DNA of 63,290 nucleotides, the filler included, from Thraustochytrium aureum (Eukaryota), in assembly GCA_012862495.1 (NCBI GenBank). It is 5 parts of 3 records of this genome, joined end to end, with 100 filler letters (N's around TTAATTAATTAA, not from the genome) between each part and the next. Parts side by side here need not be neighbours in the genome. Positions count along the whole stretch, not along the records: positions 45,102 to 61,844 come from BLSG01000158.1; 4 more parts are not named here. One strand, given 5' to 3'. A program made the position numbers and the translations under genes. Shown piece by piece: positions 15,428 to 61,944 of this stretch. The notes under the pieces were generated by a model, which was given only the letters and a program-made list of their open reading frames with translations, made no database searches and had not been told where the DNA came from. The stretch's first letter is position 1. Each line of letters starts with the position of its first letter.

Positions 15428-16855
15428 TCACGTCGGCGAAAACGTTTGGCGTAGCTTTTTCACGCCGCTACTTCGCGGAACACCACGTTGTAGGCTGCGG
15501 ACGATCGCGGCAAACTCGTCCGTGTAGCGAAATCGCTGAAACGGGTCGCGCTCCATCAAACCGAAAATCTCCTCCATAGCTTCGTCAAAAACGTCGACAG
15601 GTAGTTTGGGACACGTGTCCGCCGTCGGCTTCGTGGACCCAAACGCCTTGACCAGGTTCGAGCGCTGCTGGCCGTCGATATTGATCTGGAGGTCTGCGTC
15701 TTCCGAAATAAATGTACAGAAGATGTTGCAGGCCACAGTTGCCCGCGACCGCTCGGTGGGTGCCTCATCATACATCTCGCGCCATTCTCGAGCAGTTCGC
15801 CAAAACAGAATGCTTTCGACGTTGCATTCCTCTGCAAGAAGCTTTTGAAACGAGCGAAGACCAGAGGGGATGGCAAGCACGGTTTCGAGCGTGACGTCGG
15901 CTGGACTGATAGATTCTGTCCCCGAAATTATGCGGCTTGCAGTGCTCCCTTGGGGGATGACAGAACTGCTAACCCGCCTAGAGTGCGGCCCCCGTCTCAG
16001 CGCGTCGTCGGGGTCTCTGAACGTCCTGAGAAGTGGCTGGAAGTGAATCACATGGTGCTGGTAAACAAGGCCAACGTTCAAAACCCACGCAGTTGGGAAG
16101 TCCACCCAACGACTCAGGAAGAAAGCAGCAAAGGTCCACAACACGAGCGTCACGGCGCCAGCCTTGACCACTTTGGTATCCTGCGCCCGCAGGTGATGCG
16201 AGTCGTCTACGCCTCCCAAATTGTAGTAGAGTACCTTTGCATCGATCACTACGTAGATGAGGACCACCAACAAAAAGAATCCTTCGGTTATGGCGTCCCG
16301 AAGACAACCGTTGCAACCTGAGCCGTAAATAGGGTTGGTAATAACCGATACGCTGACGACAACGCTTGGTATCGCCAGAGAGAGGCACAACGCGCGTATC
16401 TCGTTCGCGCTTCCAGCTTGTCGCATCCGCTTTCGCAACGCGGTGAGATCGAGTGCGGTCTCTGTTATCGCAAAAGACTCCATCGCTTTTCCCAAGCGAG
16501 ATTGGTTGTAAAGCTGGATGAAGGTGATGGTCTGCGGGGCAAGAACCAGCGGCATGCCGAAGGCGCGAAACACGAGAAGCATCTCGCAAGGAAAGTCATT
16601 GCGCCCGTATGCGTCCCGGAACATGACAATCGTATGGATCATCATCGCGCCAATCACAGTTGTCACCATAAGCCTTGCTTCGCGCAAGCATAGAGGGAAC
16701 AGATTCCGGCGCCAGACCAGCAAGATTGTTGAAGGGACGGTGTACAGCGTCACCAGTCCGAACGCCAAGCCCATCCCCACCCTCATTCCGAAGCTTAATT
16801 CCTTTGGGTTTTGTTCATCGTGCAATTGCAAGATCAACTCCGTGCAATTCGCCAT
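15428..16855 (-). CDS. 7TM-RGS protein (multi-pass membrane domain fused to a regulator of G-protein signalling domain)
   Basis: About seven hydrophobic segments, then an RGS box: FQKLLAEECNVESILFW...IFCTFISEDADLQINID...VFDEAMEEIFGLMERDPFQRF. Confidence 0.85.
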   Translation of the reverse strand: MANCTELILQLHDEQNPKELSFGMRVGMGLAFGLVTLYTVPSTILLVWRRNLFPLCLREARLMVTTVIGAMMIHTIVMFRDAYGRNDFPCEMLLVFRAFGMPLVLAPQTITFIQLYNQSRLGKAMESFAITETALDLTALRKRMRQAGSANEIRALCLSLAIPSVVVSVSVITNPIYGSGCNGCLRDAITEGFFLLVVLIYVVIDAKVLYYNLGGVDDSHHLRAQDTKVVKAGAVTLVLWTFAAFFLSRWVDFPTAWVLNVGLVYQHHVIHFQPLLRTFRDPDDALRRGPHSRRVSSSVIPQGSTASRIISGTESISPADVTLETVLAIPSGLRSFQKLLAEECNVESILFWRTAREWREMYDEAPTERSRATVACNIFCTFISEDADLQINIDGQQRSNLVKAFGSTKPTADTCPKLPVDVFDEAMEEIFGLMERDPFQRFRYTDEFAAIVRSLQRGVPRSSGVKKLRQTFSPT

Positions 16856-20400: not shown

Positions 20401-20500
20401 NNNNNNNNNNNNNNNNNNNNNNNNNNNNNNNNNNNNNNNNNNNNTTAATTAATTAANNNNNNNNNNNNNNNNNNNNNNNNNNNNNNNNNNNNNNNNNNNN
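20401..20500. other. Artificial scaffold linker
   Basis: N44-TTAATTAATTAA-N44; stop codons in all six frames. Confidence 0.97.
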
Positions 20501-36760: not shown

Positions 36761-36860
36761 NNNNNNNNNNNNNNNNNNNNNNNNNNNNNNNNNNNNNNNN
36801 NNNNTTAATTAATTAANNNNNNNNNNNNNNNNNNNNNNNNNNNNNNNNNNNNNNNNNNNN
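36761..36860. other. Artificial scaffold linker
   Basis: N44-TTAATTAATTAA-N44. Confidence 0.97.
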
Positions 36861-45001: not shown

Positions 45002-45101
45002 NNNNNNNNNNNNNNNNNNNNNNNNNNNNNNNNNNNNNNNNNNNNTTAATTAATTAANNNNNNNNNNNNNNNNNNNNNNNNNNNNNNNNNNNNNNNNNNN
45101 N
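45002..45101. other. Artificial scaffold linker
   Basis: N44-TTAATTAATTAA-N44. Confidence 0.97.
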
Positions 45102-45117
45102 ACTAGAGCACGCCGTT

Positions 45118-46041
45118 CTACTGGTAGGTGCGGAACGCCTTCTTGGCGCTCTCGTCGCCCGCCGTCGGGTCGGCGCGCTTGAGGACTTTGAGGAGCAAGT
45201 CTACTCGGTGCCGCATACGGCTGTGCAGGTGCGCCTTGGAGGCCTTGATGTGGTAGTGGATGTAGGCCCGGAACCCGGAGAGGAGCGTGCAGAGCTTGTC
45301 AAGCTTTGCGCCCTCAACGTGCGATTGGAAGATTTGGAACTGGACGTAGCCGACGAGATCCTCCTTGCCCGCGCGGAACTCGCGCACTTTGCCGAGGTCG
45401 CTGGGGCAATCCGTTGTGAAAGCCACAGAGGGCGCGTTGGGGATCTTGCGGTTCGTCTCGCTAAACTCTTGCAGAAAAACCTTTGCGATGGCGCGGTCGG
45501 TTTCGTCGGAAAAGTAGACCGTAAAGAACACCAGCACGCGGTCCGAGCTGGGGACCAGGATCATGCTCTCCGCCGGGCGAAAGGGAATCACCATCGGCTT
45601 GAGGGAGCTCGAGCTGCCTTTGGCAAGGGCCTCGAAGCAGCGCTTGAACGGGGCAGCCGTTAAGTTGCGCTTGATCTCGGCAAAGTTTTTCGCCACGGTC
45701 TCGGCGCTTTCGCGCTGCTTGTCGACGTCAATCTTGAACTCGGTGTCGTACCCTTTCTCCGACCCGGACGACTTGTAGGCACCATACATGCTGTCCAGGA
45801 GCGCGGAAGCGCCGAGGCCGTTGAGGTCGCGCAGGTAGGGCATAGAAAGCTGAAACTTGATCACATTCTTGGCGTCGCCGGTGACGACCATGCGGTACCG
45901 CACGTCGTCAAAGTCGGAGCAGGTGATGTCACAGGGCTCTTGCTTGGCGCCAGGGGCCAGCTTCTCCAACAGCGTGCTCTTGATGATGGGGTGCTCCGTT
46001 TCCAGGAAGATCATCCCCTTGGCACCTTGCGCGACACTCAT
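45118..46041 (-). CDS. ARPC2: Arp2/3 complex subunit 2 (p34)
   Basis: MIFLE, SDFDDVRY, KRNLTAAPF, DRV.VFF...FSDETDRAIAKVFLQEF, YIHYHIKASKAHLHSRMR. Confidence 0.93.
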   Translation of the reverse strand: MSVAQGAKGMIFLETEHPIIKSTLLEKLAPGAKQEPCDITCSDFDDVRYRMVVTGDAKNVIKFQLSMPYLRDLNGLGASALLDSMYGAYKSSGSEKGYDTEFKIDVDKQRESAETVAKNFAEIKRNLTAAPFKRCFEALAKGSSSSLKPMVIPFRPAESMILVPSSDRVLVFFTVYFSDETDRAIAKVFLQEFSETNRKIPNAPSVAFTTDCPSDLGKVREFRAGKEDLVGYVQFQIFQSHVEGAKLDKLCTLLSGFRAYIHYHIKASKAHLHSRMRHRVDLLLKVLKRADPTAGDESAKKAFRTYQ

Positions 46042-46826
46042 CGTTGATGGTTGGCGCCTCGGGGGCGTCAGCGGCAGGCAGGGGGGCCAAGCACGGAGGC
46101 AACGACCTCGGCGAACGAGTGCGCTGGGCGACGGCAACGACCGCCTGCGCGTGCGCCTGTTGGTGCTCGAGCTTCCGCGAGCGCGCTATCTAGCCGGGTA
46201 TGCACAGCAACCTGCCGGCTGGAGGCCTCGCGCCGCCGCTGCTGCTCCTGCTGCTCCTGCTGCTGCGAGGGGCTGACGAGACTGCTGCGAGGGGGAGGCA
46301 GGAAGGAAGGCAGGCAGATCCTGCTGCTGCCTCTCCTGGGTGTGCTACGAGGGGCAGAGGGACCAGGATCACTCTGTCGTGATTGTTCCGTGAGGATGTC
46401 AGAAATCCGGACGTTGGGCGTAGTGGGTGAGAGCGAACCGCCTGAAACTGATTGGTTCTTCCTTCTCTGGCCGGCGGATGGCGCGGATTTCCTGCCTTCT
46501 TTCACTCCTTCCTCCTCATTTCGTCCTTTCCTTCGCTCAGCGGAGCCTCTTTCCTTCCTGCGTTTCCTTCGCCCCCTCCTCCCTCTTCTGAAGGTTCACT
46601 CTGAAGGTTCACTCTGAAGGTTCTGAAGGTTCTGAATTCTTGAGGGCGTTTGCTGAGTCCGCCGGATAAAATAATTTGCCCCATGCGTTCATTCTGTTCG
46701 GGCCCACCGCTTGCGGCGCTGGTGGACCTCTTCAAGCCCACGCTGCGGGCCATCGCCGCGGACGACGCGCTGCGCGCAGAGCGCACACGCGCAGAGTGCA
46801 TACGTACCGAGATATCGCCTGCCCGC

Positions 46827-47405
46827 ATGCAGCCAGCGCGCGAGCCAGCGCGCGACGCGGCCGTTTTCGTAGACTCGGCCCTTGAAAGCCTCCAGGGCAG
46901 GCCCGGCGTTGCACGCGAACAACTCGCAGAGCGGCTCGCTGGAGGCGTCGCTCGCGACAACGCCGTCGCCTCAGGACAAGCTGTTCTTCGTCACGTTGTG
47001 GCCGGACGCGCGGGGGGCCGCGCGCAGGACGTCGCAAGAACGCTCGACTTGTGCCCCGTAACTCGCAGCCACGTCAGCGCGGCCTTCGAACCGAAAGCCG
47101 AAACCTTAGCTCGCTGGATCGAGACCGGCGCCTCACGGTGCGGCATCGCGGGGACACGACTCGTGACCTTTGATTGGTCGGTTCGGCTCCAAGTCGAAAG
47201 CGCCACGATGTTTGACAGCCCTCGAGAGGGCCATCAGAACAGCCTTTTGGTACTGGACCTGCGGCTCGACTGTTCAGACGGGCAAGAGAGGTCAGCAACC
47301 CTCGAGCTTGACATCGCGGAACTGGATGAAATCCTGGCAAGTCTTCACCGGGCCCTGGGAGCTTTGAGCCGTGCTGTCACCACAATCGGAGGCGCCGATG
47401 GATGA
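46827..47405 (+). CDS. COMM-domain protein (COMMD8-like)
   Basis: LVTFDWSVRLQVES...LLVLDLRL...TLELDIAELDEILASL; start uncertain. Confidence 0.7.
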   Translation: MQPAREPARDAAVFVDSALESLQGRPGVAREQLAERLAGGVARDNAVASGQAVLRHVVAGRAGGRAQDVARTLDLCPVTRSHVSAAFEPKAETLARWIETGASRCGIAGTRLVTFDWSVRLQVESATMFDSPREGHQNSLLVLDLRLDCSDGQERSATLELDIAELDEILASLHRALGALSRAVTTIGGADG

Positions 47406-48588
47406 ATGCAGGCAGCACTGACGGGCACCGTGACGTGCGAATCTCGCCCTGCTATGCGAGGGTGGAGAATGTAGCCGAGCCTCTCCTGTTGTTGCGACGA
47501 CCTGATGTCCGAGCTAATTGCTGCCCGGAGGTCTTCGTCGTTGATGTGTCTTCAGAGCTGCGCTGAGATGGTGCAACAATCTAGCGAGAACGTTCGGGCG
47601 GGCGGACTTGAGCTCTGCTGCTCGGCGCAGCGAACGGGACTTGCTCCGTGCTCCGCAGCGGCTGTCTGCATCGGGCTAAGAGGCTGCAATGCTGCCAGGC
47701 CCTATTCAGCGCGGCGGCGCTTGCGCATTCTCGTACTCTTCACGCGCTGGTTGGTATCCAAAGCACACGGCGCGTGCTGCTCCTGCTCATCACTTGCCTT
47801 GAGGATTGTAGGGGCGTGTCGAACCTCGAGGCGCTGACGCGCTGAGAGGCTCGAAGCTCCAACTCGTCGATGCGGCGGATGAGCCCTTCCCAGAATTTGC
47901 TCCTGACGAGGAAGAAGGTGTCCAAGTTGGGCAGAGCTCGACCGAAAGGCGAGTAGCACACGACTCTACAGCAATCCGTTTGCCGACTTGGTGTGGGTCT
48001 TCGAGGACGGCGGCCGCGGCCCGCGCTTTAGGGGGGGGGTTCTGTGCCCATTCGCAGACGGTTCTGCACCAGCAGTACAACTGTACAAGAGAACACATCG
48101 TATTGCAACGGCTCTCTGTGGTCGCGCCGAGCTCGGTTCTCGCAGGGTTTGTGTTGGCCGCGGCAAGGCGGTCCCTCGACCCACGACGGGGGTCATCTTG
48201 TCCAGGCTCATTCGGATTTGAACGGCTCCCCGGTGTTCTTCACCATCACCTCGGCCATTCAATCACTTTGATTGATACGCCATGGTGTTACCTACGAGAA
48301 AGTCTAAGAGTTCAGCTGCCTCCTTAGGCAGCTACTGACGGGACATCTCTGCTCGCGACGGAGGCCGCGTGCTGATCATTTGCTTGGGTTGTTACTCTAC
48401 GCGACGCTAAAAGACGGGAGGATTGCATTTTGATTGATTGATTGAAATGACAGGAAACAGTTTGGCCGTTGGAACTCGGCGAACGGCCGATGGATGCGCA
48501 ACGTCGGAGAGTCGCAGCGTCGGAGAGTCGGAGAGAGTACTTTGTGGTGTTTCAGGCAGAGCTCGCGCTCACGAAACAATGCCTTCCG

Positions 48589-48669
48589 CTCAAACAGGAC
48601 GGCAGGCATCTGAGCTCAAACAGGACGGCAGGCTCCTGAGCTCAAAAGAGACGGCAGGCTTGTGAGCTC
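48589..48669 (+). repeat. About 26-bp imperfect tandem repeat, three copies
   Basis: ctcaaacaggacggcaggc..ctgag units. Confidence 0.8.
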
Positions 48670-49134
48670 GTGATGTTTTGCCGTCCATTCTAGACCAAAC
48701 GACGGGTGACTCTCTCCTCTCAGGTTCGGGTTGTACTTGCCACGGACAACTAACTAGCTCGAGCGAGCGCGAGCCGATGGGGACATCGCGGCAAGTTGAT
48801 GATGGCTTTGTCCGTAACCGTTGAGTTGTTCGTTGAGAGTTTCAGGTTGCGAATGGAGAACGGTGTGCTACGACGAAAAAACGCCCCCCCGATGGGTTGC
48901 GCCTTCTTTTCGGTAGTCGAGTCGCAGAGGGCGATAAATCAAGCAAGGCGCCAAACAACGAAATCGCCACCGCGCTTTGATTGAACGAGATTGTGTGATT
49001 GAATGAGTGACCGTCGAGCAGACACCAAACGCTTGGATTGAACAAGCCACGAAAGCAAAACTACGAGAAGCCGACCGACGAAAACGCGTTGACGAAACGA
49101 AGACCGAGCAACACGAAGCGCGCGTGGGGGCGGG

Positions 49135-52100
49135 ATGAGGTTGTCTCGCGGAGACTTTGCGCTTGCGCTTGCCGCGTCATCGTGGGCTTCGTTTGCGAAC
49201 GCAGACTGTGCATGCAAGAATCGCAGCGACACTCGCATCGCTTTGGTTGGGTTTCAGGACCCTGCCTCCTCCGATGAGTTCAACCTGATCATGAAAGGGT
49301 TTCTGGAGGCCGGTAAAAGCCTCCGCGTCCAAGCAACTGTGCAGACCCCGACCGACTTTGAGCTGGTGGATGAATTTGCTGCAGACAAGCTGGCCGCCTT
49401 CAAGCACCACGTAGACCTAGCCATGGCCGCGGACCCGCACGGCTTGCTCGTGAGCGTGNNNNNNNNNNNNNNNNNNNNNNNNNNNNNNNNNNNNNNNNNN
49501 NNNNNNNNNNNNNNNNNNNNNNNNNNNNNNNNNNNNNNNNNNNNNNNNNNNNNNNNNNNNNNNNNNNNNNNNNNNNNNNNNNNNNNNNNNNNNNNNNNNN
49601 NNNNNNNNNNNNNNNNNNNNNNNNNNNNNNNNNNNNNNNNNNNNNNNNNNNNNNNNNNNCAAAGCACTGCCGAACAACGTGTCGGCACGCTGGTCGGCCC
49701 CGGGATCGCGGCGCGGACAAACGCAACCCGTGCCAAGGGACTTTTCCGTGGCGTCACTCACCTTGGCGTGGACGAGCGCGCCACTGGCGAGCAGGTAGGG
49801 AGCCAGGCTGGCCGCCTCGGCGCGACGTCGGCGCTCTGCTTCTTTGCAGAAGGCGGGCTGGGTTCCGAGGCAGAGCAGTGTCAAGGGTTTGTGGACGGGT
49901 TCCTCGCGACTTGTCCAGGAAATTGCCACGCCGCGACACGCAGCATGTCGAGCTTCAACCTGTTTACCCTCAAAGCAGATCTCAGCGCCGAACTCTCCAC
50001 AAGCGCTCACAACGCCACATCGCTGGTCGTGGCGCCGAACGGCCGCAGCGCGCGCGCAGCCCACCAAGTGCTCGTGGACCTGGGGCGAAGCCCGATTCAC
50101 GTAATCTCTATGTCCGCAGACGCCATTGCAGAGACCATGATGACTGATCGCGAGCTCGCCTTCAGTGTCGACCGGCAGCCGTACCTTTCAGGGTTTCTTG
50201 GCACCGTTCTCACCGTCTACGCGGCGACAACAGGGCAGAGGCCAGCCAACCCCGTTCTCAGCACCGGCCCCGTGTTCCTGACAACACCGCGCAGGCGGCC
50301 CGAAACGACTGTTGACCAGCTGGTTCTTGACATTGTCACCCACGGTCGCGGCGTGGACGGGTTTTGGCTTGACGCGAAGAAGGGCGGCGTGGAGGCAGCC
50401 CGGGACATTGGCTTGTCGTTCGAAGAGTGCGCAGTGGTAAACGCAAACTGCAATGGAAAGCCCGGCTCCGTAAGCTACCGCGCCCCAGGGTCCGAGTTCG
50501 ACCTGACGACGATGAGTTTGCAGATTCTCGAGAGCGCCAACCACGACCCCGACGGACTTGTTGTGACCATCCCGAACTGGGACGCGTTGAGCAACGCCAT
50601 CGAGACCGCCGTCAAAGACATGGGCGTCCCCACTGTGAGCGCCAACGCCGGCGGGAAGATCGCAATTCAAGTCGGGATGCTTTCCCACTTTGGCCAGGAA
50701 GAGGTCACAGCTGGGTTTAACGCCGCAGCGCACATGTTTCAAAAGAAGGGGGTAACCAAAGCGATCTTCGTCAACCACGAGAAGGGCAACTCGGCCTTGG
50801 ACGAGCGCGCCCAGGGGTTTGCCGACGGTCTCGATGCCGCCACTGGGAACTCTGGGACAGTGCGGGAGGTGCTGACGACGTTCGGCAGCCGAACCGCGTT
50901 CCAAACCAACGTGATTCCGGTTTTGCAAGGAGACCCCAATATCACCGGCTTGATGTTTGCGGGTACGTTCGATGTCGACATGGCCGTCGACGAGATTCAA
51001 AAGGGAGGTGTGCCACAGGCGATCGTGATTGGAACTTTTGACGTGCTTCCTGAAGTGATCACGTGGATCGAGAACGGCACATCGCTTCTGACGATCCAGC
51101 AGCAGCAGCAAATGCAGTTCTACGTCCCCACCATTTTGCTAGCCCTCCGTGCGCTCACCGGAGAGTTCTTCAAAGCCGACTGGTTCATGACCGGGCCAGC
51201 GATCGTCGACCAGTCCAACGTGGACCAAGTCCCTTGCCAACACGAGCTGGCGTGTCCCGCCGAGCTCGAGTACGTCAGCGGCGCCTGCCCAATGCCTCGA
51301 AGCCGGGGAGATGGGTGGTGTGACAAGGCCAACAACGTGCCAGAGTGCGGCTACGACGGCGGCGATTGCTGTGGCGAGACTTGTGTCAGCTCGAACGCGT
51401 TCTCCTGTGGCACAGACACCTTTTCGTCGGGGCTCAACAAGTTTTCGTGCATCGACCCAGACACCCTGGAGGGCCTCGAGTCTATCTGCGAGGCGACGCC
51501 AAGTGATCCCCGCTGCGTTGGTGCCAACTTTCGCGACCCCACTCTGCTCACCTTGGGTCTCGTGCTCGACATGACCGACTCGAGCGTCACCGATCAAGCC
51601 GAGTGTGTGGGTGACCACCGGGTTTGGAACTCTACGCTTGAGAGTTGCATTCTCCGCGGGGAACCACAGGCTGTGCTTGCAGCCGCGCTCCTTGCCGCGC
51701 AGCACTTCAACGACCGAGATGGCAGCCTTCTTCCAGTCCTTGGGACCGTAGGATCCTGCAACAAGAAGCTGACTCTCGTTGTGGAGGACGCAGGCTCTGG
51801 GATCGGACCGTCTATTGCGGCAACGATGCGCGTTCTGCAGAATGGGACTGACGTCATAATCGGGCCGTCGTCTTCTGACGCCATGGTCCGCGCTGCTCTG
51901 CTCTCAAGCGCGCTAGGCGGAATCCCCCACATTTCGCATGCAGCGACGTCGCGCCGGCTTGACGATGCCGCATCGTTCCCTTACTTTTCGCGCACGATTG
52001 TCCCAGAAACCGAGAATACGAAAGCAACCTGCCGGGTCTTCTCTGCGCTTGGGTTCCGCTTTGCTGCGGTGCTGTACCCCGAGACTGAAGACGGCGAGAG

Positions 52101-53913
52101 CCGTCGCGCGAATTTTGTGAACACCTGTGCGGCCCAGGGGGTGACAATCCGGCCCTTTCCATTTACTTGGGATGATCCTGCCAACTCCGCGGCCTTCGCA
52201 GGTCTCGAGGCCTTCAACGTGATTTCCCTGGTTGGCAGCTCCGCGCAGGCGCTTCAAGTGCTCCAGGCCGCGTTTGCCAGAGGACTCGTGAGCCCTGGCT
52301 CGTCGTGGTTCCTTGACAAATCCCTAGTCGCACGCATCAACGGGATGGCCTCGCATCCACCTGGGTTTCTTGATGCGGTTGCCGGCTCCGTCACGGTCAA
52401 GCCCCGCGGTGGCGCAGGCGCTCTGTACGACGCGTTTGTAGCAAAATGGTCCGCTTCTAGCGTCACCTCGTTCGCTGGCGCCCTCCCGCAAGGCGTATCG
52501 ATTGAAAGCGCATTCGAAACCACCGAATTCCTGCCCATGTCAGCCGCGTACGTTTTCGACTCGGTCGCGCTAGCCGCAGTCGCCTCGTGCCACATTTCAC
52601 CAAGAGACCCATTGGTTCGCAGCTCCTTCGGAGATCTGTTCCAGGATGCCCTGGCCAAGAGCATCGAGTTTGAAGGGCTTACTGGAAAAATAGCCATGGA
52701 TACAAACCACAACCGCAAGCAGTCCACGTCTGGGATCGAGATTCTCAGCGTGCACCGTCCAGGCGCCACTGGGCCGCCCCTTCAGCAGACAGTTGTTGGC
52801 GAGTTTGACATTGCAGGGGGCAAACTCGAGCTTTGGGGCAACCTGACGTTCACCGGCGGAGTCGCGGCGCAAGCGGTCACCGACGTCAAGATTCCTACGC
52901 AAGACTACGGCTACTCCTCCGCTTTGACGGCGGTTTCGTACGCGTTTCTCGCGATCAACCTGGGCATCTGCGGTTTTTTCTTGGTCTGGACAGTGAAGAA
53001 CAGGCGCGAGGCTGTCGTGCGCGCTGCACAAGTGCCGTTCCTCGTTATGGTTGGCGTTGGTTGCGCCGTGTCGTCGTTGGCCATTATCCCCATTGCAACC
53101 ACCGATCAGAGTGAGCCAGCTGGGCCGAACGGGGGCCACAGTGCTGCTGATGCGTCTTGTATGGCCCAGGTTTGGCTCTATACGCTCGGCTTTGTGCTAA
53201 CTTTTGGCCCTCTGTTCGCCAAGCTGTACCGCGTTCGCAAGATCTTCCTCGAGAACCAATTTGCTGTGGGGTCGTCCAAGAAAAACAAGGCCGGAGGATC
53301 GGTTCGGAGTCGGATTAGCAACACGCAGCTCATCAAGATGATCGCCAAGTTTGCGTCAATGGACTTGGTAATCGTTGCATCGTGGACGGTCATGCACCCG
53401 ATGAAATACGTTCGTCAAGTCCAGCAAGCAGACGAGTTTGGCAACCCGCTCAAGTCGGCAGGGTCCTGCGTTGGCGAGCACACCTCGATATACATGGCGC
53501 TGCTGGGGGCGTTGCACATTTCGATGCTTGCTTACGGCTCGTTGCTGTGCTACCAGACAACTGGCATTTCCACCGTCTTTGCGGAGTCCAAGTACCTGAG
53601 CGTGGCAATCTTCAGCAACCTCCAGCTCCTCCTCGTGGCCATCCCGATCCTAGTGGTGACCTCCGACAATGCTCAAGTGTCCACGTTTGTTCGAAGCGGT
53701 GTGGTGTTTCTTGATGCGGCCAGTACAGTCATCCTCGTGTTTGGGCCAAAGGTGTACTTTCACTGCTACGGAGTAAACGACTCTGGCATTGGAGCGGGTA
53801 TGGTGAAAAATTCCAAGTCCAAGAGCAACTCGGCCACGTCTGGGGTGAAGACGACGGTAATGCCAAGCTCAGCTGTGGACGTGAGCATCGCAACGAACTC
53901 AAATTCTAATTAG
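49135..53913 (+). CDS. Class C (GABA-B-like) GPCR with two type-I periplasmic sugar-binding-like domains, an LNR repeat and an ANF/Venus-flytrap domain
   Basis: Signal peptide; SBP motifs VDRQPYLSG..TGPVF and VTHG..DGFW..KKG..PDGLVVTIP..GQEE..NHEKGN.ALDERA..TGPAIV; LNR GDGWCD..NNVPECGYDGGDCC; ANF IIGPSSS, ISHAATS, FPYFSRT, FEGLTG; 7TM VVRAAQVPFL, LFAKLYRV, FAESKYL, FGPK. Confidence 0.85.
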   Translation: MRLSRGDFALALAASSWASFANADCACKNRSDTRIALVGFQDPASSDEFNLIMKGFLEAGKSLRVQATVQTPTDFELVDEFAADKLAAFKHHVDLAMAADPHGLLVSVXXXXXXXXXXXXXXXXXXXXXXXXXXXXXXXXXXXXXXXXXXXXXXXXXXXXXXXXXXXXXXXXXXXQSTAEQRVGTLVGPGIAARTNATRAKGLFRGVTHLGVDERATGEQVGSQAGRLGATSALCFFAEGGLGSEAEQCQGFVDGFLATCPGNCHAATRSMSSFNLFTLKADLSAELSTSAHNATSLVVAPNGRSARAAHQVLVDLGRSPIHVISMSADAIAETMMTDRELAFSVDRQPYLSGFLGTVLTVYAATTGQRPANPVLSTGPVFLTTPRRRPETTVDQLVLDIVTHGRGVDGFWLDAKKGGVEAARDIGLSFEECAVVNANCNGKPGSVSYRAPGSEFDLTTMSLQILESANHDPDGLVVTIPNWDALSNAIETAVKDMGVPTVSANAGGKIAIQVGMLSHFGQEEVTAGFNAAAHMFQKKGVTKAIFVNHEKGNSALDERAQGFADGLDAATGNSGTVREVLTTFGSRTAFQTNVIPVLQGDPNITGLMFAGTFDVDMAVDEIQKGGVPQAIVIGTFDVLPEVITWIENGTSLLTIQQQQQMQFYVPTILLALRALTGEFFKADWFMTGPAIVDQSNVDQVPCQHELACPAELEYVSGACPMPRSRGDGWCDKANNVPECGYDGGDCCGETCVSSNAFSCGTDTFSSGLNKFSCIDPDTLEGLESICEATPSDPRCVGANFRDPTLLTLGLVLDMTDSSVTDQAECVGDHRVWNSTLESCILRGEPQAVLAAALLAAQHFNDRDGSLLPVLGTVGSCNKKLTLVVEDAGSGIGPSIAATMRVLQNGTDVIIGPSSSDAMVRAALLSSALGGIPHISHAATSRRLDDAASFPYFSRTIVPETENTKATCRVFSALGFRFAAVLYPETEDGESRRANFVNTCAAQGVTIRPFPFTWDDPANSAAFAGLEAFNVISLVGSSAQALQVLQAAFARGLVSPGSSWFLDKSLVARINGMASHPPGFLDAVAGSVTVKPRGGAGALYDAFVAKWSASSVTSFAGALPQGVSIESAFETTEFLPMSAAYVFDSVALAAVASCHISPRDPLVRSSFGDLFQDALAKSIEFEGLTGKIAMDTNHNRKQSTSGIEILSVHRPGATGPPLQQTVVGEFDIAGGKLELWGNLTFTGGVAAQAVTDVKIPTQDYGYSSALTAVSYAFLAINLGICGFFLVWTVKNRREAVVRAAQVPFLVMVGVGCAVSSLAIIPIATTDQSEPAGPNGGHSAADASCMAQVWLYTLGFVLTFGPLFAKLYRVRKIFLENQFAVGSSKKNKAGGSVRSRISNTQLIKMIAKFASMDLVIVASWTVMHPMKYVRQVQQADEFGNPLKSAGSCVGEHTSIYMALLGALHISMLAYGSLLCYQTTGISTVFAESKYLSVAIFSNLQLLLVAIPILVVTSDNAQVSTFVRSGVVFLDAASTVILVFGPKVYFHCYGVNDSGIGAGMVKNSKSKSNSATSGVKTTVMPSSAVDVSIATNSNSN

Positions 53914-54018
53914 AAAGCAAAAAAATGAAAAAAGGTGAGGAAGACATTATTGGTTGGGCTGCAGTACAAAGCAGAGTGGCTCCACTAGTAGAGAGGCCTT
54001 GGGGCCTCGGGGCTTTTG

Positions 54019-54129
54019 AAAGTCTCAAATAAACGAAACCACAACCAAGTCGACCCAGTACGCCACAGAAGCTGCGTGCTGAACAGACCGGAAAAAGTCC
54101 CAAAATAAACGAAACCACAACCAAGTCGA
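54019..54129 (+). repeat. About 35-bp direct repeat pair
   Basis: aaataaacgaaaccacaaccaagtcga near 54027 and 54103. Confidence 0.75.
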
Positions 54130-54932
54130 GATGACGAAACGTCGTGACGATCATCTGCAGATTGATGACGAAGTGGGAGCAAACAAACACTTGGCGAAAC
54201 AGACCCCTGAAAGCGAACTTCGGCAGCAAGACCTCCTTCCTTGCCCGTGTTGGATTTGATTTGTCCAGCAGATTCGCGTTGGATTTGTCCAGTCCAGATC
54301 CGTCGTATGTCCTGGACACTGCTCCTCAAGAACTCTAAACCCGTCTCATCAACCGGTGGACCGACCGATTTCAGTGTTTTAACAATGTGGCGAGGAATAC
54401 TTTCCATTGCTCATGATGCTCGAGTCTCCTTGGGGATGTCAATTTGAAATCGCCGCGGCAAGCCTTCACTAGGGTGGCCTAGCGTCGATGATGCGAACTG
54501 GTGGATTTGCACATTTATTGGCACTCTGCACCAATCCTGACGACCGCCTCCTGAAAAGTTGAATTATTGGTCCCCTGCCCGGATTTCTTCGAATTATTGG
54601 TACTCTGCCCGAATTTCTCCTTCCTGTTGCTGGGGTTGGGTCGTTGGAAACATACATACTGTAATTCGGAACGAGACGTATGGGAACTGTCGTGGAGGCC
54701 CCAGCCTCAGCCTATGACCATCCGGGGCCGGCCTGTGAGGATATGTATGTGTCGAGGACAAGTGTTGCTGAGCCCAGTCCAAGCCCAATCAGTGCCAAAT
54801 CTTCCTTCCCTTGACTTTGGGTGTTCGTCCTGAACAAGGGACCTCTCGTTTTCAACCTCGCTGGTATGTGTATCTTGATATCCACGATTATGTCCAGACT
54901 AGGCCTATGTCAAGAGAGAAGTTTATTGTCAT

Positions 54933-57538
54933 CTATCTGCTTTCCGGAGTCGGCGCGGCGCACCTTGCGGAGCTCTGCCGGACGAGCATTCCAAGGCGAG
55001 AGTTTAGTTCCAACAGATCCATGGCGCCTCGCTTGAACAAAACCATGTTGTCCAACACGGATGCGAGCATCTTGATGCTGCAGGGCTTGGGGAGGATGCC
55101 GTTAAAGTCGGCGCCGTGGACGCGCTCCATCTCGCCCATGCTGCTGAGCGCAGCCGTAAAGGCCATGATCACAAGGCCGGGGCGCTGCTGCTGAGCTCGG
55201 ATCAGGTTTGTCGCTTCAATGCCGTCCATGTCTGTCATATTGATGTCCATCAGAACAAGGTCGACAAGCCTATTGGTGCTAGCGCAGTGTTCGACTGCGC
55301 TCGCACCGTCTTCGAGGCACACGACGTCCTTAACGCCCGCCTTGCGGAGCAGCCTTAGCATCACGGCGCAGTTGACGGCATTGTCGTCGACGACTAGGGC
55401 GCTGAGTTGCTCGACCGTGCACGTTGCGTTGACGCGACTGTGCGTCCCAAGCGTGTCTCTGCTCAACGCTGCGTCGTCCGCGATGATGCCCTCGGCCGGC
55501 ACTGTAACCGAAAATTGTTGCGCAAGCTGCGCGACGTTGATGCTGCAGCTACTGCTGCCGTCCTGGGACGACTCGTCGCTGCAAGAGGCCGTTCCCGCGC
55601 TGTCAAAGTGCTTCCAACCGGCAGTCGGCTCCAGGAAGGACTCTAGCTGTCCGTCGTCCCGGGGTGCTGTTTCAAAGGGCAATAGCGCATAAAAGGTCGT
55701 GCCTTCGCCCTCGACACTTTCCACGTGTATCNNNNNNNNNNNNNNNNNNNNGTGCCCCCCATGAGAAAAACGATCTGCCGGCATATTGCCAGCCCCAAGC
55801 CGGTCCCGCCAAATTTGCGCGTAATAGACGCGTCGGACTGCGTGAACCGCTCAAAGATTAGCTTGAGCGCGGAGGCCTTGATCCCGACCCCCGTGTCCGA
55901 AACAGAGACAAGAAACCACTGCTTGTGCGGCTTGTTCGTCGCAGCTTGCCCGTCGCCGTCCGCGCCGTGCCTGGTGCTCTTGAGGAGCTCAACGGGCTCG
56001 CTACCGCTGCGGCTGCCCGCACTCGCAGTCCATGGCCGCGAGATAGGAACTTGCACTTCGTCGGAGCGGCAGTCTGCCCGCGTCGCGCCTTGCGCGGTCG
56101 GCGGCAGCACGGCATGATTGTTCTCCACTTCGCGAGTTCGGCGCAAACCGCGCCTAGGGCCTTTAATCAGAAGCGGTTGCTCCGCGCTGGCCTTGCTGTC
56201 GACGAAAATACGCGCTTGTTTTGGCGCTCTCGCTTTCGAAACCGAGTCGTCCTCCAGGCTGCGCATATCAACCCTGTCGCCACCGTCCCCTGAGATCGAG
56301 CGGGCGTTGGGTGGTGGCGGGCTGAAGGTATGCTTGCGGGTGGCAAAGTTGTCGAGCCAATCTGCGCGTTGTGCCGCTGAGCCGATTTTCGTCAGCGAAA
56401 CCGATACCGACCCCTCCCTGGTGAATTTGACGCCGTTGCCGACTACGTTGCTCAGAAACTGAACCAGCCTCGTCGTGTCCGTGAGAACGCGGCTAGGGAT
56501 ACCCGGGCCGATGTTGAACCGGAAGTCCACGTTGGCGCACTTTGCCGTCCCTTCGGCGATGCTGAGCGACCGCTCGACAGCCTCGCGCAGGCACACTGGC
56601 TCGATTTCAAGTTCAAACTCGGCCTTCTGGTACTTTGCGAAGTCCAGAATATCGTTAATAATGTTGGCCAGGAGGCGCGCGCTCGAGAGGAGCGTTCGCA
56701 CCATGGATAGCTGGCCAGAGCTTAGCCGGGACGTCTCGAGCAGTTCGGCGAAACCGAGGATCGATTGCAGCGGCGTGCGCACCTCGTGTGACACAGTCGC
56801 GATGAAGTCTTGCCGCGTTTGTGCCAGCTGCTCGGCAGCTTCTTTAAGCACCTGCAGTCGCATGTACTTTGCGTTCATCTCCTTGAGCAGCCGCGAGGAC
56901 TCGTCCACCGCGTCCTCGAGAGCGGCCGCTTGAGCCAACAGCATGGAGAGGTCCTTTGTGTGCCTGATCAGCACGAAAACAGTTGCGATGGACACCACGG
57001 CAGTGGCGACGCATGACACGAGCAGAAGGCGAGGAACGCGGTAGAAGAACGAGATGAAGTGAAACAGGTGCGTGAATCCGCAGCACACGATGAACAGCAT
57101 AAAGCACACGCGAACGGTCTTGAACACGTTGGCGACCTCGATGCGTTTCAGAAACAGGAAGATCTGCACTGGGATCACAAAGTACGCCACCGCGATAAGA
57201 AGCTCACTCGCTATGGCAGCAGTCGACTTGGCTTCCCACTCTCCATTCTCCACCACGAGCTCCTCGAGCCCTCGCAACTCCCCCAAACCCCGCATTGCGG
57301 CCACCCGCGCCTGTGGCGGGCGGGCCCCAAGCCACAGACAGGTGCTGCGCAGTGTTGGTCCAGCCCTTCCCACGAAAGTCGTGTACCGAACTCTACGCAA
57401 CCACGCACGCAAACGCAGACACGCACGCGGCCACGCAGCCGCACAGCCAAGCCACCGCCAACAACAGCGTTCGCATTTCGGGTCTGCCGCTCTTGCGCCG
57501 CTTTCTTCTGGTCTGCCAGTGGAGAGATCATCCACCAT
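54933..57538 (-). CDS. Ethylene-receptor-like hybrid histidine kinase (3-TM EBD, HisKA, HATPase, receiver; no GAF)
   Basis: SELLIAVAYFVIP, FIVCCGFTHL, TAVVSIAT; SHEVRTPL; NGVKFT; DTGVGI; GGTGLGL; receiver VVDDN, LMDINM, PKP. Joining the flanks of the 21-N gap restores MGGTIHVES in frame. Confidence 0.9.
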
Positions 57539-58210
57539 TGGAATTTAGAAAGAGAGGTCGACTCGATTTTTTGGGCAAAACACTCGTGAAAAATGTTGGC
57601 GCCGCCTCACAGACCTTCGGGGAAGCGGGGCTGTGATGAGCGCGAAAGAGTTTTGGTCGGACCTGCCGGGAGGAACAGAGAGTCCTGCCCCCCTCCCCCC
57701 CCCAAAAAAAATCCTCCCACTGTGGTTGTACGCTGCGGCGCGTCGAGTCTCGCGTCCCAAACGCAACAGTCGATGTGTAGTACCACTCTACTTGTAAACC
57801 GACGCCGAGTCGACCAAGCCACACGGTAGGCTCATGATGATCAATCAGCATCCAGCGGCCAGTCCTTGAGCGTTGGACCTTGAGCGTCGCGTTGTGCCAA
57901 GGGAAGCTCACACCCGTCGACCCGAGCGAGGAGGAGCGAACTGTGCCCAACAACCAGCTTGCTTCAGCTCGCCGCATTAGCGCACTTGGAAAACCGAATG
58001 TGGCTGGGGCTCGTTTGGCTGGCTGGGGCTCGTTTGGCTGGCTTCGTCTGCTTCGTCAAGAGGTTGTTGGTTGGTGCAACTCTGTATTTCGATCCGCTCG
58101 CCACGGACGCTTCGTGTCAAGATCGGAAGGCCATGCTTCGTTAGACTTTTGGTTCTGCGTTCTGATTCTGGTAACTACCGGTTTGCCTGTGCGCGCAGGG
58201 CTGCCCCATT

Positions 58211-58280
58211 GCCCCGTTTCAAGCTGCTAAAGTCTTCCCCGCTGGGCCCCGTTTCAAGCTGCTAAAGTCTTCCCCGCTGG
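58211..58280 (+). repeat. Perfect 35-bp tandem duplication
   Basis: gccccgtttcaagctgctaaagtcttccccgctgg occurs twice. Confidence 0.9.
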
Positions 58281-58860
58281 TTGCTACACCACCAAAAAAC
58301 ACCATGCCATGTGGATCATCGATTGTGCAACGGGTTTTGTACTCTCTGTAAGAGTGCGTATTCCGGCGCGGTGCATGGCGACTGCTCACGCGCGTTTTCA
58401 GCGCTCATCATACTCCAGTCTGGGGCGGGCGGACGCCCTGCACGAAAACCCCGCGCACCGATCTCGATGGAACGGCAACAATACAATTGGGATATCAACC
58501 GGCTAGCAGCAATCGAGTAGAGCACGATCAACTCAAACACCGGCAGGGCTACAAGAGCTGTCAACTCGTCCAAAGTGGCTCACGAAGCGGCGTGGATGCC
58601 GCGACCAGATGAACCACTTTGGACTCGGTGATGCCGCGGTGCTCAGCCGCCGTCACCTCTACAAGCTCCAGAGCACTGGAAACCTCTTTGGAATGGCACA
58701 AAATCATTGCGTTCCCCTCCCCAAATAGTGGTTCTAGCACGGTTTGTTGAGCGCCGCTTGGTCCGGGACTGGGTGCGTTCCAGCCGGCTGGGCGTCCTGG
58801 CAATCTGTTCGATGAGGCGGGATATCCAAGTCATTCGCGTTGCGTTGTCAGCCTTCGGCG

Positions 58861-60501
58861 CTATACGTGCGCTTTGGCGTCGTGCTCATCAAAGACGGAG
58901 GCAACAGGGATTTGGGGGCTTGCGACTCTGGCCACGGCATCGCCCAGGAAGCCCTCATGTCGAGCGCCGCTGTTTCTCCGCATCAAGCAGAATGCACCGA
59001 CGACGATGCCAAAAACCACGCCACCCCCGACGGCTAGACCGATGACTGCTTCGATTCCCAACGCTTGGGTGGTGGAAGACGCAACGTCGGCGAACCCAGT
59101 GCGATGCTCTGACGGGCTCCTTGACGGGGAGGCTGATGGGCTTGGCGAGGGGCTGACGGACCCATCGTTGACTGACGGAGGACTAGCCATAGCGGGGCTC
59201 GCCGTCGGAGCGCAGGCCATTGTGGGACTGGACGTTGGAGAGTCGGTCGTCGTCGGGCTGGTTGTCGGGTGCTCGATTGCAAAAACACGCACGTGGCCTC
59301 TATTGTCCGAGTCGTCTCCTGTCGTGCCGTCGTTGAAGGGGGCCCCAATCGCGACCATGTTGCCATCTGACGACAGCGAGACAGTGAGCCCAGAGTTGTC
59401 GTTCTCCGCCTCACCCTCAATGCCTTCGTTCAGTTGCGTCCACTTGTTCGCGAGGAAACGGTACACGCGCACCTGGCCCGCCTTGTTGGCTTTACCGTTT
59501 TTCAGGGGCCACCCGATCGCGACCGTGTTGCCGTCCGACGACAGCGAGACCGAGTACCCGAACCAGTCACGAGCTGTCTCGCCGTGAATGTCGGCGCCCA
59601 CTTGCGTCCAGGCATCGGAGACAAAGCTGAAGATTCGAACATAACCCGCGTCGGTGTATGTTCCGTCGTGGCGGTGCGACCCAATCGCGACCGTGAGACC
59701 GTCCGAAGACAGCGAAACAGAGTAGCCAAACCAGTCATCGATGCCTTCGCCGTCGATGTCGGCACCCAGCTGCGTCCAGGCGTCGGTATTGAATCGGTAC
59801 ACGCGTACGTGACCCGCGCTCTCGGCTCCTCCGTCGTTCGCAATGGCCCCAATCGCAACCGTGTTGCCGTCCGACGAAAGGGATACCGACCAGCCAGACT
59901 CGTCACTAGCAGCCTCCCCGTCAATTTCGGTTCCCAACAGGTTCCAGACATTTTCAGAGAAGCGAAACACGCGCACATGGCCTCGGTAGTCTCGATTCCA
60001 TTGGGCCCCGACCGCCACCGTGTTGCCGTCCGACGACAGCGACAACGACCTCCCAAACAGATCATAGATTGCCTTGCCGTTAATATCGGTGCCGAGTTGC
60101 TGCCATGAATTTCCGTTGAAGCGGTACACGCGCACTTGGCCCGAGTTTGTGGCAGTTGCGGAGTACATCCAGGCGCCGACCGCGACTGTCCAGCCATCCG
60201 ATGATAGCGAGACAGAGTAGCCAGACTCTCCGCTGCCCGCCCTGCCGTCAATGTCAGCACCCAGCTGCGTCCAGACACCGGCTATGAACCCATACACGCG
60301 GACATGCCCTGCTTTATTGCTGTTGTTAGGCGCTCCGACCGCGACGGTGAGACCGTCCGCCGACAGAGAAATGGAGTCGCCAGACCTGTCGCCAGCAGCC
60401 TCGCCGTCAATATCCGCACCCACTTGTGCCCATGGAAGACTTTGGGCGCTTGCTCCCACTGCCAAGAGCGCGAGCGCCGCTGAAAAAGCGAGCCGAATCA
60501 T
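58861..60501 (-). CDS. Type I membrane protein with an FG-GAP-like seven-bladed beta-propeller and a Pro/Thr/Ser stalk
   Basis: Signal peptide; seven repeats of WTQLGADIDGEA..D.SG.SVSLSSDG.TVAIGA...GHVRVY; PTTSPT stalk; TM VIGLAVGGGVVFGIVVGAFCLM followed by RR. Confidence 0.85.
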   Translation of the reverse strand: MIRLAFSAALALLAVGASAQSLPWAQVGADIDGEAAGDRSGDSISLSADGLTVAVGAPNNSNKAGHVRVYGFIAGVWTQLGADIDGRAGSGESGYSVSLSSDGWTVAVGAWMYSATATNSGQVRVYRFNGNSWQQLGTDINGKAIYDLFGRSLSLSSDGNTVAVGAQWNRDYRGHVRVFRFSENVWNLLGTEIDGEAASDESGWSVSLSSDGNTVAIGAIANDGGAESAGHVRVYRFNTDAWTQLGADIDGEGIDDWFGYSVSLSSDGLTVAIGSHRHDGTYTDAGYVRIFSFVSDAWTQVGADIHGETARDWFGYSVSLSSDGNTVAIGWPLKNGKANKAGQVRVYRFLANKWTQLNEGIEGEAENDNSGLTVSLSSDGNMVAIGAPFNDGTTGDDSDNRGHVRVFAIEHPTTSPTTTDSPTSSPTMACAPTASPAMASPPSVNDGSVSPSPSPSASPSRSPSEHRTGFADVASSTTQALGIEAVIGLAVGGGVVFGIVVGAFCLMRRNSGARHEGFLGDAVARVASPQIPVASVFDEHDAKAHV

Positions 60502-61308
60502 GGCACTGCAGAGCGCTGTTCTCTCAGTGGTGCTGGTGTGGCGCCCGCCCAGGTCGTCCCTTGTCGTTCGTTGTCCGCTGATGGTGCTGCAAGGGTTGCG
60601 TGTCTGTCGCTGTATTTGTGGCCTTGCTGCAGGAGCGCAGCTTGGTCGAACGTCCTTGCTGTGACTACAAGAAGAAAAGGCCTACCTACTAACTAACTAA
60701 CAAGAGAACTGGTCGGCGTCCCGCAACGTGGTTGCCCTCCTCACCCCTGTTTCAAATGCAAAAAAGTACAAAACTAAAACGTGAAACTGCATTTCGCGCG
60801 TTGCGCTCACACAATTTGATAGTCGCGATCTTCCTCCATCCGTGCGGTTGGCACGGGGGCGTTGGTACCGACGCTGGTCCAAACTCCGTTTTCAAGCCCG
60901 CGTTTGGCGAGGAAACTGTGGTCGCTCGACGAGCAACAGCGATTGCCTTTCTCAAGAACGGTGACTCGTGCTTGAAAAAGCTGCGCGAGTTCTCCAGTGA
61001 CATGAGTCGCCGCCCGAGTCGCTGGTTGCGAGCCAGCCAAAATCTTTATAACAAAAAGTACTTACCTGGCAACCACTGGCAGTGGGAAGAGTGTAAGTAC
61101 ACAGTGTGATCATGATGGGCTGTGGCATCCGAGTTGTTGGTGGACAGCAGTGATGCCGATTTGTTACAGCTGCCCATTTCAACCAAGAGGAAACCTCGAG
61201 GTTAGCCCTCGATATTTCCTCTAGAATATACGTCGTGTACCGTCTGTCGCGTCTCGTCTCGTTGGGTCAGGTCACTGCCACCCCTCTTCCAACACGCAGC
61301 ACCAACAA

Positions 61309-61800
61309 ATGGATGCCACGTTGCGCGAGCTCGACGCCCAGCTGCGGCGTGTCCGCGGCGATGACGCCGCCTCCGGCAGGTCCGCTTCCCGGGCCAGCGA
61401 CGAGCAGCTGGAGAACATGCGCGAGCGCGTCGGCTGGCCTGATCTGCCAGCGGACTTGTGCCAGTTCTACGCACTAACCGACGGGTACGCGCCGGACGCG
61501 TACTCGCTCGCCGCCGTGCTGCCAGCCGACGAGGTGGATGCCGTGGCGCGCGTGGAGCCGGCGGTGGTGCGGTCCTTTGCCGAGTTCGTCCCAGAGCTGG
61601 AAGAAGGGCGTGGCGCCGTGGCGCTGTCGCGCGAGAACGACACGTCGATGCTCTTTGCCGTGCGCACCGACGACAGACGCGTGAGCTACTGCTGGTTAAA
61701 CCACGCGGGCGGCGCCGACGTCGAGAGGTATGACAGCTTGCAGGCGATGCTCCGCGGCTTCATGCTGGAGCAGCTCTCCCAGTTCGACCCGGTTGGCTAA
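61309..61800 (+). CDS. SMI1/KNR4 (SUKH superfamily) protein
   Basis: ASDEQLENMRERVGWPDLPADLCQFYALTDG at the N-terminus and YDSLQAML at the C-terminus. Confidence 0.65.
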   Translation: MDATLRELDAQLRRVRGDDAASGRSASRASDEQLENMRERVGWPDLPADLCQFYALTDGYAPDAYSLAAVLPADEVDAVARVEPAVVRSFAEFVPELEEGRGAVALSRENDTSMLFAVRTDDRRVSYCWLNHAGGADVERYDSLQAMLRGFMLEQLSQFDPVG

Positions 61801-61844
61801 TTATGCGCGCGCCGCGCGGATGAAACAGTTTTCCCAGGTCCAAA

Positions 61845-61944
61845 NNNNNNNNNNNNNNNNNNNNNNNNNNNNNNNNNNNNNNNNNNNNTTAATTAATTAA
61901 NNNNNNNNNNNNNNNNNNNNNNNNNNNNNNNNNNNNNNNNNNNN
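61845..61944. other. Artificial scaffold linker
   Basis: N44-TTAATTAATTAA-N44. Confidence 0.97.

Follow-up and report, generated by a model that had tools for sequence, protein, structure and literature searches.

The window, the whole 63,290-nucleotide stretch of Thraustochytrium aureum DNA that was analysed, contains a class C GPCR gene whose product carries two type-I sugar-binding-protein domains (SBP1 and SBP2) and an LNR repeat ahead of an ANF (Venus flytrap) domain and a 7TM region. Class C receptors with tandem SBPs form a large family, and published examples of sugar-type SBP-7TM fusions date back to 2013; what is new here is an ANF domain added to the tandem-SBP 7TM design, a real, conserved and rare architecture made from a known kind of part. 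The favoured reading, given a probability of roughly 0.45, is that the tandem cassette (SBP1-SBP2-LNR) stands ahead of a GABA-B-like flytrap-7TM in a two-input chemosensor, in which SBP2 would bind a cyclitol, ANF an amino-acid-type ligand, and SBP1 would be ligand-free.

Domain layout and the Mucochytrium counterpart

Pfam places the domains in the order SBP, SBP, LNR, ANF and 7tm_3 (Table 1), the same order as in an earlier sequence-only reading of this DNA and within about 100 nt of its coordinates. The type-I SBP character proposed there for the N-terminal domains is borne out by two Peripla_BP_4 matches, one to SBP2 (E 1.5e-20) and one, under the cut-off, to the C-terminal part of SBP1 (E 8e-4), and the motifs it had named (VTHG, DGFW, PDGLVVTIP and NHEKGN) are all present. 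The LNR repeat is matched by Pfam Notch at 51298-51369 with an E-value of 4e-5 (24.3 bits, cut-off 21.2), and is followed by ANF_receptor (E 4e-27, 95.6 bits, cut-off 25.4) and 7tm_3 (E 2e-35, 123 bits, cut-off 33.5).

Table 1. Features of the receptor gene and other genes, in positions of the window
Feature	Position	Strand	Basis or remark
Class C GPCR gene, whole	49135..53913	+	ORF; product ~1535 aa; 41% identity to the Mucochytrium protein
Likely signal peptide	49135..49203	+	Hydrophobic N-terminus, judged by eye
SBP1, complete type-I sugar-binding-protein fold, degenerate pocket	49207..50289	+	Pfam, family HMM, AlphaFold, pocket residues
N-gap	49459..49659	.	Hides 29 coding letters and a likely intron or insertion; base missing behind 49685
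SBP2, predicted inositol/rhizopine-type binding domain, intact pocket	50311..51240	+	Pfam, NCBIfam, model, pocket residues
Cys-rich LNR-like linker, conserved extension common to P0019 and kinase-type proteins	51235..51460	+	Pfam Notch, alignment
ANF / Venus flytrap domain, amino-acid-site Ser and Thr kept	51541..52800	+	Pfam; best solved relatives mGluRs
Class C 7TM, GABA-B-like, joined to ANF without NCD3G	52912..53751	+	Pfam; best solved relatives GABA-B
Short Ser/Thr-rich cytoplasmic tail	53752..53910	+	Sequence
Multi-TM protein with C-terminal RGS domain (5.8e-14)	15428-16855	-	Pfam
ARPC2 (p34-Arc), ordinary eukaryotic neighbour	45118-46041	-	
COMM-domain protein, ordinary eukaryotic neighbour	46683-47405	+	
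Hybrid histidine kinase, ethylene-receptor-like N-terminus	54933-57538	-	ETR1_N 1.7e-19, HisKA, HATPase_c, receiver
Secreted or single-TM FG-GAP repeat protein	58861-60501	-	

The closest solved relatives of the ANF domain are mGluRs, which match around the amino-acid site. ANF residues S914 and T938 are invariant in all three aligned rows and align with amino-acid contacts of mGlu2, but Glu and Asp occupy positions where mGlu2 has Asp and Tyr. Between ANF and the 7TM region Pfam finds no NCD3G, the nine-cysteine domain of mGluR, CaSR and T1R receptors, and ANF runs into TM1. The closest solved relatives of the 7TM region in the PDB are the GABA-B subunits (E 3e-15), and the class C TM motifs were located in it, namely the TM3 and ECL2 Cys, K-x-x-R, the TM6 E and PK; among class C motifs, PMC3727952 lists two Cys, a basic pair at TM3, the TM6 acid and the TM7 PK. 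With 7tm_3 above cut-off, a PBP-fold flytrap before TM1 and these motifs, the class C identity given by the sequence-only reading is upheld at the level of sequence. GABA-B receptors and mGluRs share ANF, 7tm_3 and the TM motifs with the window protein, and GABA-B receptors also join ANF to TM1 without NCD3G; they have one flytrap only, whereas the window protein begins with approximately 770 extra residues (two SBPs and LNR).

The counterpart of this protein is found in Mucochytrium quahogii (P0001; EP00516_P005315 / MMETSP0098, also in JGI and EukProt), a complete transcript of 1550 aa that aligns with the window protein at 41% identity over 1411 columns with 4% gaps. Since this alignment is full length, a single transcript of a relative carries all five modules. 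Among long proteins P0001 is the sole homolog found with the SBP region, and the search for a description of it returned a database entry only and no paper. It shares with the window protein the five-module order, an identical SBP2 pocket and a degenerate SBP1, is its sister in the SBP and 7TM trees, and differs in having kept the SBP1 Arg. Identity between the two is 53% for SBP2, 36-45% for SBP1 and 34% for ANF, in line with the earlier view that SBP1 is more diverged than SBP2. The Notch match is undetected in P0001 at E 0.001, yet the LNR motif aligns. The P0001 cassette model contains two complete domains (pTM 0.88), with the LNR region modelled at a pLDDT under 50.

The tandem cassette in other proteins and the proposed mechanism

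A HMMER query composed of SBP1 (C-terminal part), SBP2 and LNR gave 1637 matches at E 0.001 among 1.84 billion representatives. Pfam was run on 98 of the best 150 of these, including every match longer than 362 aa, and the 1487 matches below the best 150 could hold distant cases of the full design. A 7tm_3 domain was found in 27 of the 98, and two Peripla_BP_4 domains occur in 24 of those 27, consisting of P0001 and 23 others (counted as 50%-identity clusters), one a diatom. ANF is present in one of the 27 7TM-bearing matches listed, P0001. The rarity claimed for the architecture thus applies to the version with the added ANF, found among these proteins only in the window and in P0001, while the tandem-SBP-7TM part is widespread; P0002 is a further SBP-SBP-7TM protein, and one such receptor comes from the diatom Pseudo-nitzschia heimii. 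No further locus appeared in two metagenome scans, Foldseek with the tandem-SBP model returned single-domain matches only, a word search gave no ANF-7TM parent, and an LNR-ANF-7TM parent was absent among 13 LNR-rich matches. Atlas look-alikes with scores of 0.96-0.97 are mostly-diatom ANF and 7tm_3 clusters, which are a lead only.

Other outputs are joined to the same kind of cassette. P0020 and P0027 (two of the 98) carry SBP-SBP-LNR on a histidine kinase (HisKA), and P0019 has SBP-LNR joined straight to 7tm_3. The related SBP1-SBP2-LNR cassette of these proteins has the same Cys pattern as that of the window; the kinases have one TM with HisKA, HATPase and receiver domains as output, the 7TM of P0019 belongs to another branch, and all lack ANF. 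P0030 from Picozoa sp. COSAG05 combines a tandem SBP with PA, ephrin-receptor-like repeats and multiple TMs, and both of its SBP pockets score as intact. The SBP1-SBP2(-LNR) cassette is seen in the eukaryote-type proteins P0020, P0021, P0027, P0066 and P0157, of which P0021, P0066 and P0157 look truncated.

The diatom class C GPCRs (Port et al. 2013, PMC3727952) likewise place a type-I sugar SBP on a GABA-B-like 7TM, and three Phaeodactylum receptors with ABC-sugar-like N-termini are described there; in the text available, neither tandem copies nor inositol come up. The window receptor has a related 7TM and is not of the diatom-type layout, in which two Peripla_BP_4 domains directly precede 7tm_3, as LNR and ANF intervene; the diatom-type tandem-SBP receptors have neither of these, and their SBPs lie in their own clades. 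Fungal and amoebozoan class C GPCRs (PMC3251606, PMC5168858) are also reported with bacterial-type binding domains on 7tm_3, though from other SBP families (BMP, SBP_bac_1, OpuAC and type-II sugar) than the type-I domains of the window. In gut fungi, as far as the available text of PMC5168858 goes, a type-II SBP replaces ANF and no case with ANF is given, whereas the window protein keeps its ANF and has type-I SBPs in addition. The main text of PMC12716839, on opisthokont architectures, has no mention of periplasmic domains or LNR in the parts consulted; PMC7452957 treats diatom GPCRs and surface colonisation and, in those parts, gives no ligand; and GPCRs are unmentioned in the available text of PMC12221091. 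No published description of two sugar SBPs and ANF on one 7TM was found in this literature, where the supplements of PMC3971589 (figure S3) and PMC12716839 (file 12) and the gene trees of PMC6050695 could list it.

A FastTree phylogeny of 208 SBP domains (fragments covering fewer than 170 profile positions excluded) separated 75 bacterial-type rows from 133 eukaryote-type multidomain rows with support 93, where the bacterial-type label is based on length, a lipobox-like motif (in 24 of 58 proteins with a single SBP and 6 of 9 with a tandem) and named GTDB relatives. In the IQ-TREE analysis of 50 chosen rows, one bacterial-type row falls among the eukaryote-type rows; the AU test did not reject a tree uniting the 29 eukaryote-type rows (p-AU 0.77), and this tree had the higher likelihood. 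The eukaryote-type group was named after the first tree was seen, and so these results allow a single origin rather than demonstrate it. In the maximum likelihood tree the SBP1s of the window, P0001, two kinases, P0091 and the picozoan protein cluster (SH-aLRT 98), as do the SBP2s of the window, P0001 and the kinases (SH-aLRT 97), which FastTree did not unite. The window SBPs lie outside the diatom-type d1 and d2 clades, and the window 7TM falls within a 100/98 clade with 18 diatom-type receptors, apart from P0019 (one outgroup). The different nearest kin of cassette and 7TM point to domain shuffling, and the cassette may have been added to an ANF-7TM receptor or ANF may have been inserted.

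This history replaces the earlier idea that the receptor itself recruited bacterial modules, given that the SBP pair is an old eukaryotic cassette common to diatom-type GPCRs, the picozoan protein and the kinases. The cassette would descend from a bacterial inositol-uptake SBP that eukaryotes acquired long ago, and would later have been shuffled onto this receptor. Recent horizontal transfer was considered and rejected on GC3, since the range within the gene (0.66-0.76) lies inside that of five neighbours (0.60-0.84). Descent of the tandem from bacterial-type tandem SBPs was also rejected, as the two SBPs of each such protein group with one another, in the opposite part of the tree.

In the proposed mechanism, SBP1 and SBP2 would form one rigid unit, in keeping with the pTM of 0.88 for the P0001 cassette, in which SBP1 braces SBP2, and SBP2 would close on an inositol-type ligand. 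This closure may be relayed through the disulfide-rich LNR linker, the part of low model confidence, to ANF, which would still bind an amino-acid-type ligand and reorient the dimer, activating the 7TM and G protein by analogy with other class C receptors. The stronger version of this proposal, in which the receptor is a coincidence detector whose bacterial-origin inositol cassette gates the retained amino-acid flytrap through LNR and whose module also drives histidine kinases, is less likely than not. A receptor of this kind would probably serve zoospores in finding or settling on material of algal, plant or animal origin by chemotaxis or settlement cues, and need not be sensing a food sugar. 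In thraustochytrid genomes, PMC6050695 reports depletion of sugar/inositol transporter domains and enrichment of class C GPCR and G-alpha domains, and the depletion counts against a nutrient role.

The flytrap could instead act alone, with the SBP cassette binding ligand only as an accessory for ligand capture, glycan adhesion or targeting, as the sushi domains of GABA-B1a do. This arrangement is rather unlikely here. It would fit the position of ANF directly on TM1 with its Ser and Thr kept and the lack of a confident model for the LNR linker, and N-terminal domain recruitment and accretion are described as common among class C receptors (PMC3971589). However, the cassette is the only recognised ectodomain of P0019, P0020 and P0027 and the obvious input there, and SBP2 is better conserved than ANF between the two species. 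The presence of one cassette on 7tm_3 in P0019 and on HisKA in P0020 and P0027 makes it look like a working input module. As a two-input chemosensor, the receptor would show class C activation driven one layer further out, by sugar-type domains atop a retained flytrap, which would be of relevance to receptor evolution and biosensor design. The occurrence of one cassette on both GPCRs and histidine kinases clearly exemplifies a eukaryotic sensor module that can be swapped between outputs.

Ligand pockets of SBP2 and SBP1

SBP2 is predicted, on sequence and model, as likely to bind myo-inositol or a related cyclitol. Its model (pLDDT 94) has 4RU1 as the best fold match (TM 0.83-0.90, rmsd 2.0-2.5), and in a search of the PDB with the family profile 4RU1 is first at 1e-90, with the next entry at 2.5e-50. 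4RU1 is identified as a myo-inositol transporter protein in PMC10747050. The SBP2 domains of the window and P0001 are identical at 14 of 14 scored pocket positions and both have 7/7 core residues, and 39 of 44 bacterial rows score 6-7 at these seven core positions, which were chosen from family conservation and ribose-binding-protein contacts rather than from the coordinates of 4RU1. SBP2 retains the His and the Asp-x-Phe-Trp motif of the family. The only NCBIfam match for SBP2 is the rhizopine SBP (NF052284; E 1e-46), below cut-off at 159 against 420 bits, and the three bacterial-type relatives scanned are also under this cut-off (290-362 bits). The bacterial inositol/rhizopine ABC binding proteins (ACEI_1806, PDB 4RU1; NF052284) share the fold and pocket motif at approximately 30% identity to SBP2; they are free proteins encoded beside permease and ATPase genes, whereas SBP2 is part of a receptor.

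The bacterial gene context was taken from the best 80 of 533 GTDB matches, which were picked through one motif and include near-duplicates (among them about ten Pelagibacteraceae). A permease gene adjoins in 73 of the 80 loci and an ATPase gene in 71, with IolD in 32, IolC in 25, IolE in 22 and IolB in 10. One or more of iolB/C/D/E is present in 46 of these loci, these or an IolG-like gene in 61, and neither in 19, where each of the 17 annotated neighbour clusters is named from one member and the IolG-like cluster also contains other oxidoreductases. The earlier suggestion of sugar or polyol sensing therefore gains in its polyol half, a polyol ligand for SBP2 being favoured by predicted structure and bacterial gene context.

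Under the same mechanism SBP2 may instead bind a common monosaccharide (glucose, xylose or ribose) or another polyol, an option that appears unlikely. The structural matches ranked after 4RU1 bind glucose, galactose, arabinose or ribose, weak binding of ribose and xylose is frequent among inositol binders (PMC10747050), and the identity of SBP2 to its bacterial relatives is no higher than 28-36%; together with the low rhizopine score, this identity means that its specificity may have drifted. Against this stand the wide 4RU1 score gap, the iol-cluster context and the retained His and Asp-x-Phe-Trp. If the coincidence-detector version is true, the protein would be an inositol-activated GPCR and would provide a ligand class for tandem-SBP receptors that are still orphans in diatoms and further protists. 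Nearly every class C receptor of protists lacks a known ligand, and here a 310-residue soluble domain comes with a named ligand class, a prediction that may extend to at least two dozen divergent tandem-SBP receptors.

For SBP1, the family HMM spans the whole domain of P0001 (98.6 bits), where the two-lobed class I fold is complete with AlphaFold block means mostly of 84-98. The family's His, Trp and Asn are absent from SBP1 in both the window and P0001; the Trp position holds Asn or Arg, differing between the two. The Arg is lost in the window (Arg to Gln) and kept in P0001, the Asp of Phe-Asp is lost or shifted depending on the alignment, and the pocket Gln is retained. The first SBP domains of the kinase-type proteins are likewise degenerate, with 3-4 of the seven core residues, whereas the diatom-type receptors mostly keep both pockets (6-7/7 in 29 of 32 first domains). 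The loss of key pocket residues from SBP1 leaves two pockets rather than the three counted in the sequence-only reading, and SBP1 is likely, on residue evidence, a ligand-free partner of SBP2. That SBP1 has been re-specified for another ligand, giving three working pockets, is quite improbable: the complete fold, the identity between the two species, the kept Gln and the Arg of P0001 would be compatible with such a site, but the substitutions differ by species, a pattern more in line with decay than with a newly conserved site, and the kinase-type first domains have degenerated too.

Gene model and other genes of the window

The plus-strand ORF reported earlier at 49135-53913 is present in the sequence and is free of stops and gaps from 49660 to 53910. 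Its description as intronless is not borne out by a contig joint across the N-gap. A contig of run X2 (RNA by guess) bridges 49458 to 49660 with 29 letters, against 201 in the window, and contigs of both X1 and X2 have an extra base behind 49685. The 29 letters and one base make a net 30 nt or 10 codons, giving a product of 108+1427=1535 aa in place of the 1592 aa implied by the window frame. That frame is open by luck, with window residues 176-184 off-frame, and the alternative frame at 49661-49684 gives KALPNNVS, matching KALSSSIV of P0001. The X1 contig (DNA by guess) has the same 29 letters (2 differences) followed by at least 255 letters absent from the stretch. An intron or insertion allele within the N-gap is likely as the simplest reading of one contig per run with guessed run types, and the assembler's 201-nt estimate suggests a size of approximately 170-230 nt for the intron (or insertion allele). 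No RNA label is recorded for X2, X4 and X5, whose assignment to RNA is a guess; their contigs cover ARPC2 and the kinase gene far more than the FG-GAP ORF, a hint towards RNA.

The window is a chain of scaffolds with stop-codon linkers between them, with artificial N44-linker-N44 joins at 20401-20500, 36761-36860, 45002-45101 and 61845-61944, and neighbourhood across these joins is not real; the GPCR gene lies wholly within the scaffold at 45102-61844. There is a negligible chance that the fusion is an artefact in which assembly or annotation merged separate SBP and GPCR genes: the assembly is gappy and made of joined scaffolds, and among the contigs listed from other runs none spans the gene or bridges 51441-51564, but the uninterrupted reading frame downstream of the N-gap and the complete transcript of another genus with the same order throughout both speak against it.

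The multi-TM protein at 15428-16855 is, from its sequence, probably a 7TM-RGS, and this 7TM-RGS-like protein suggests G-protein signalling in the organism. Upstream of the GPCR gene is a multi-copy element of approximately 135 nt (48287-48421), marked by numerous loose contig ends and a high summed depth in four of the runs; it has no Rfam match and no unusual fold (z 0.08), and is possibly a SINE-like repeat. The hybrid histidine kinase gene lies 1 kb from the GPCR gene, tail to tail, and looks split only through a 20-N gap, which the contigs of three runs omit.
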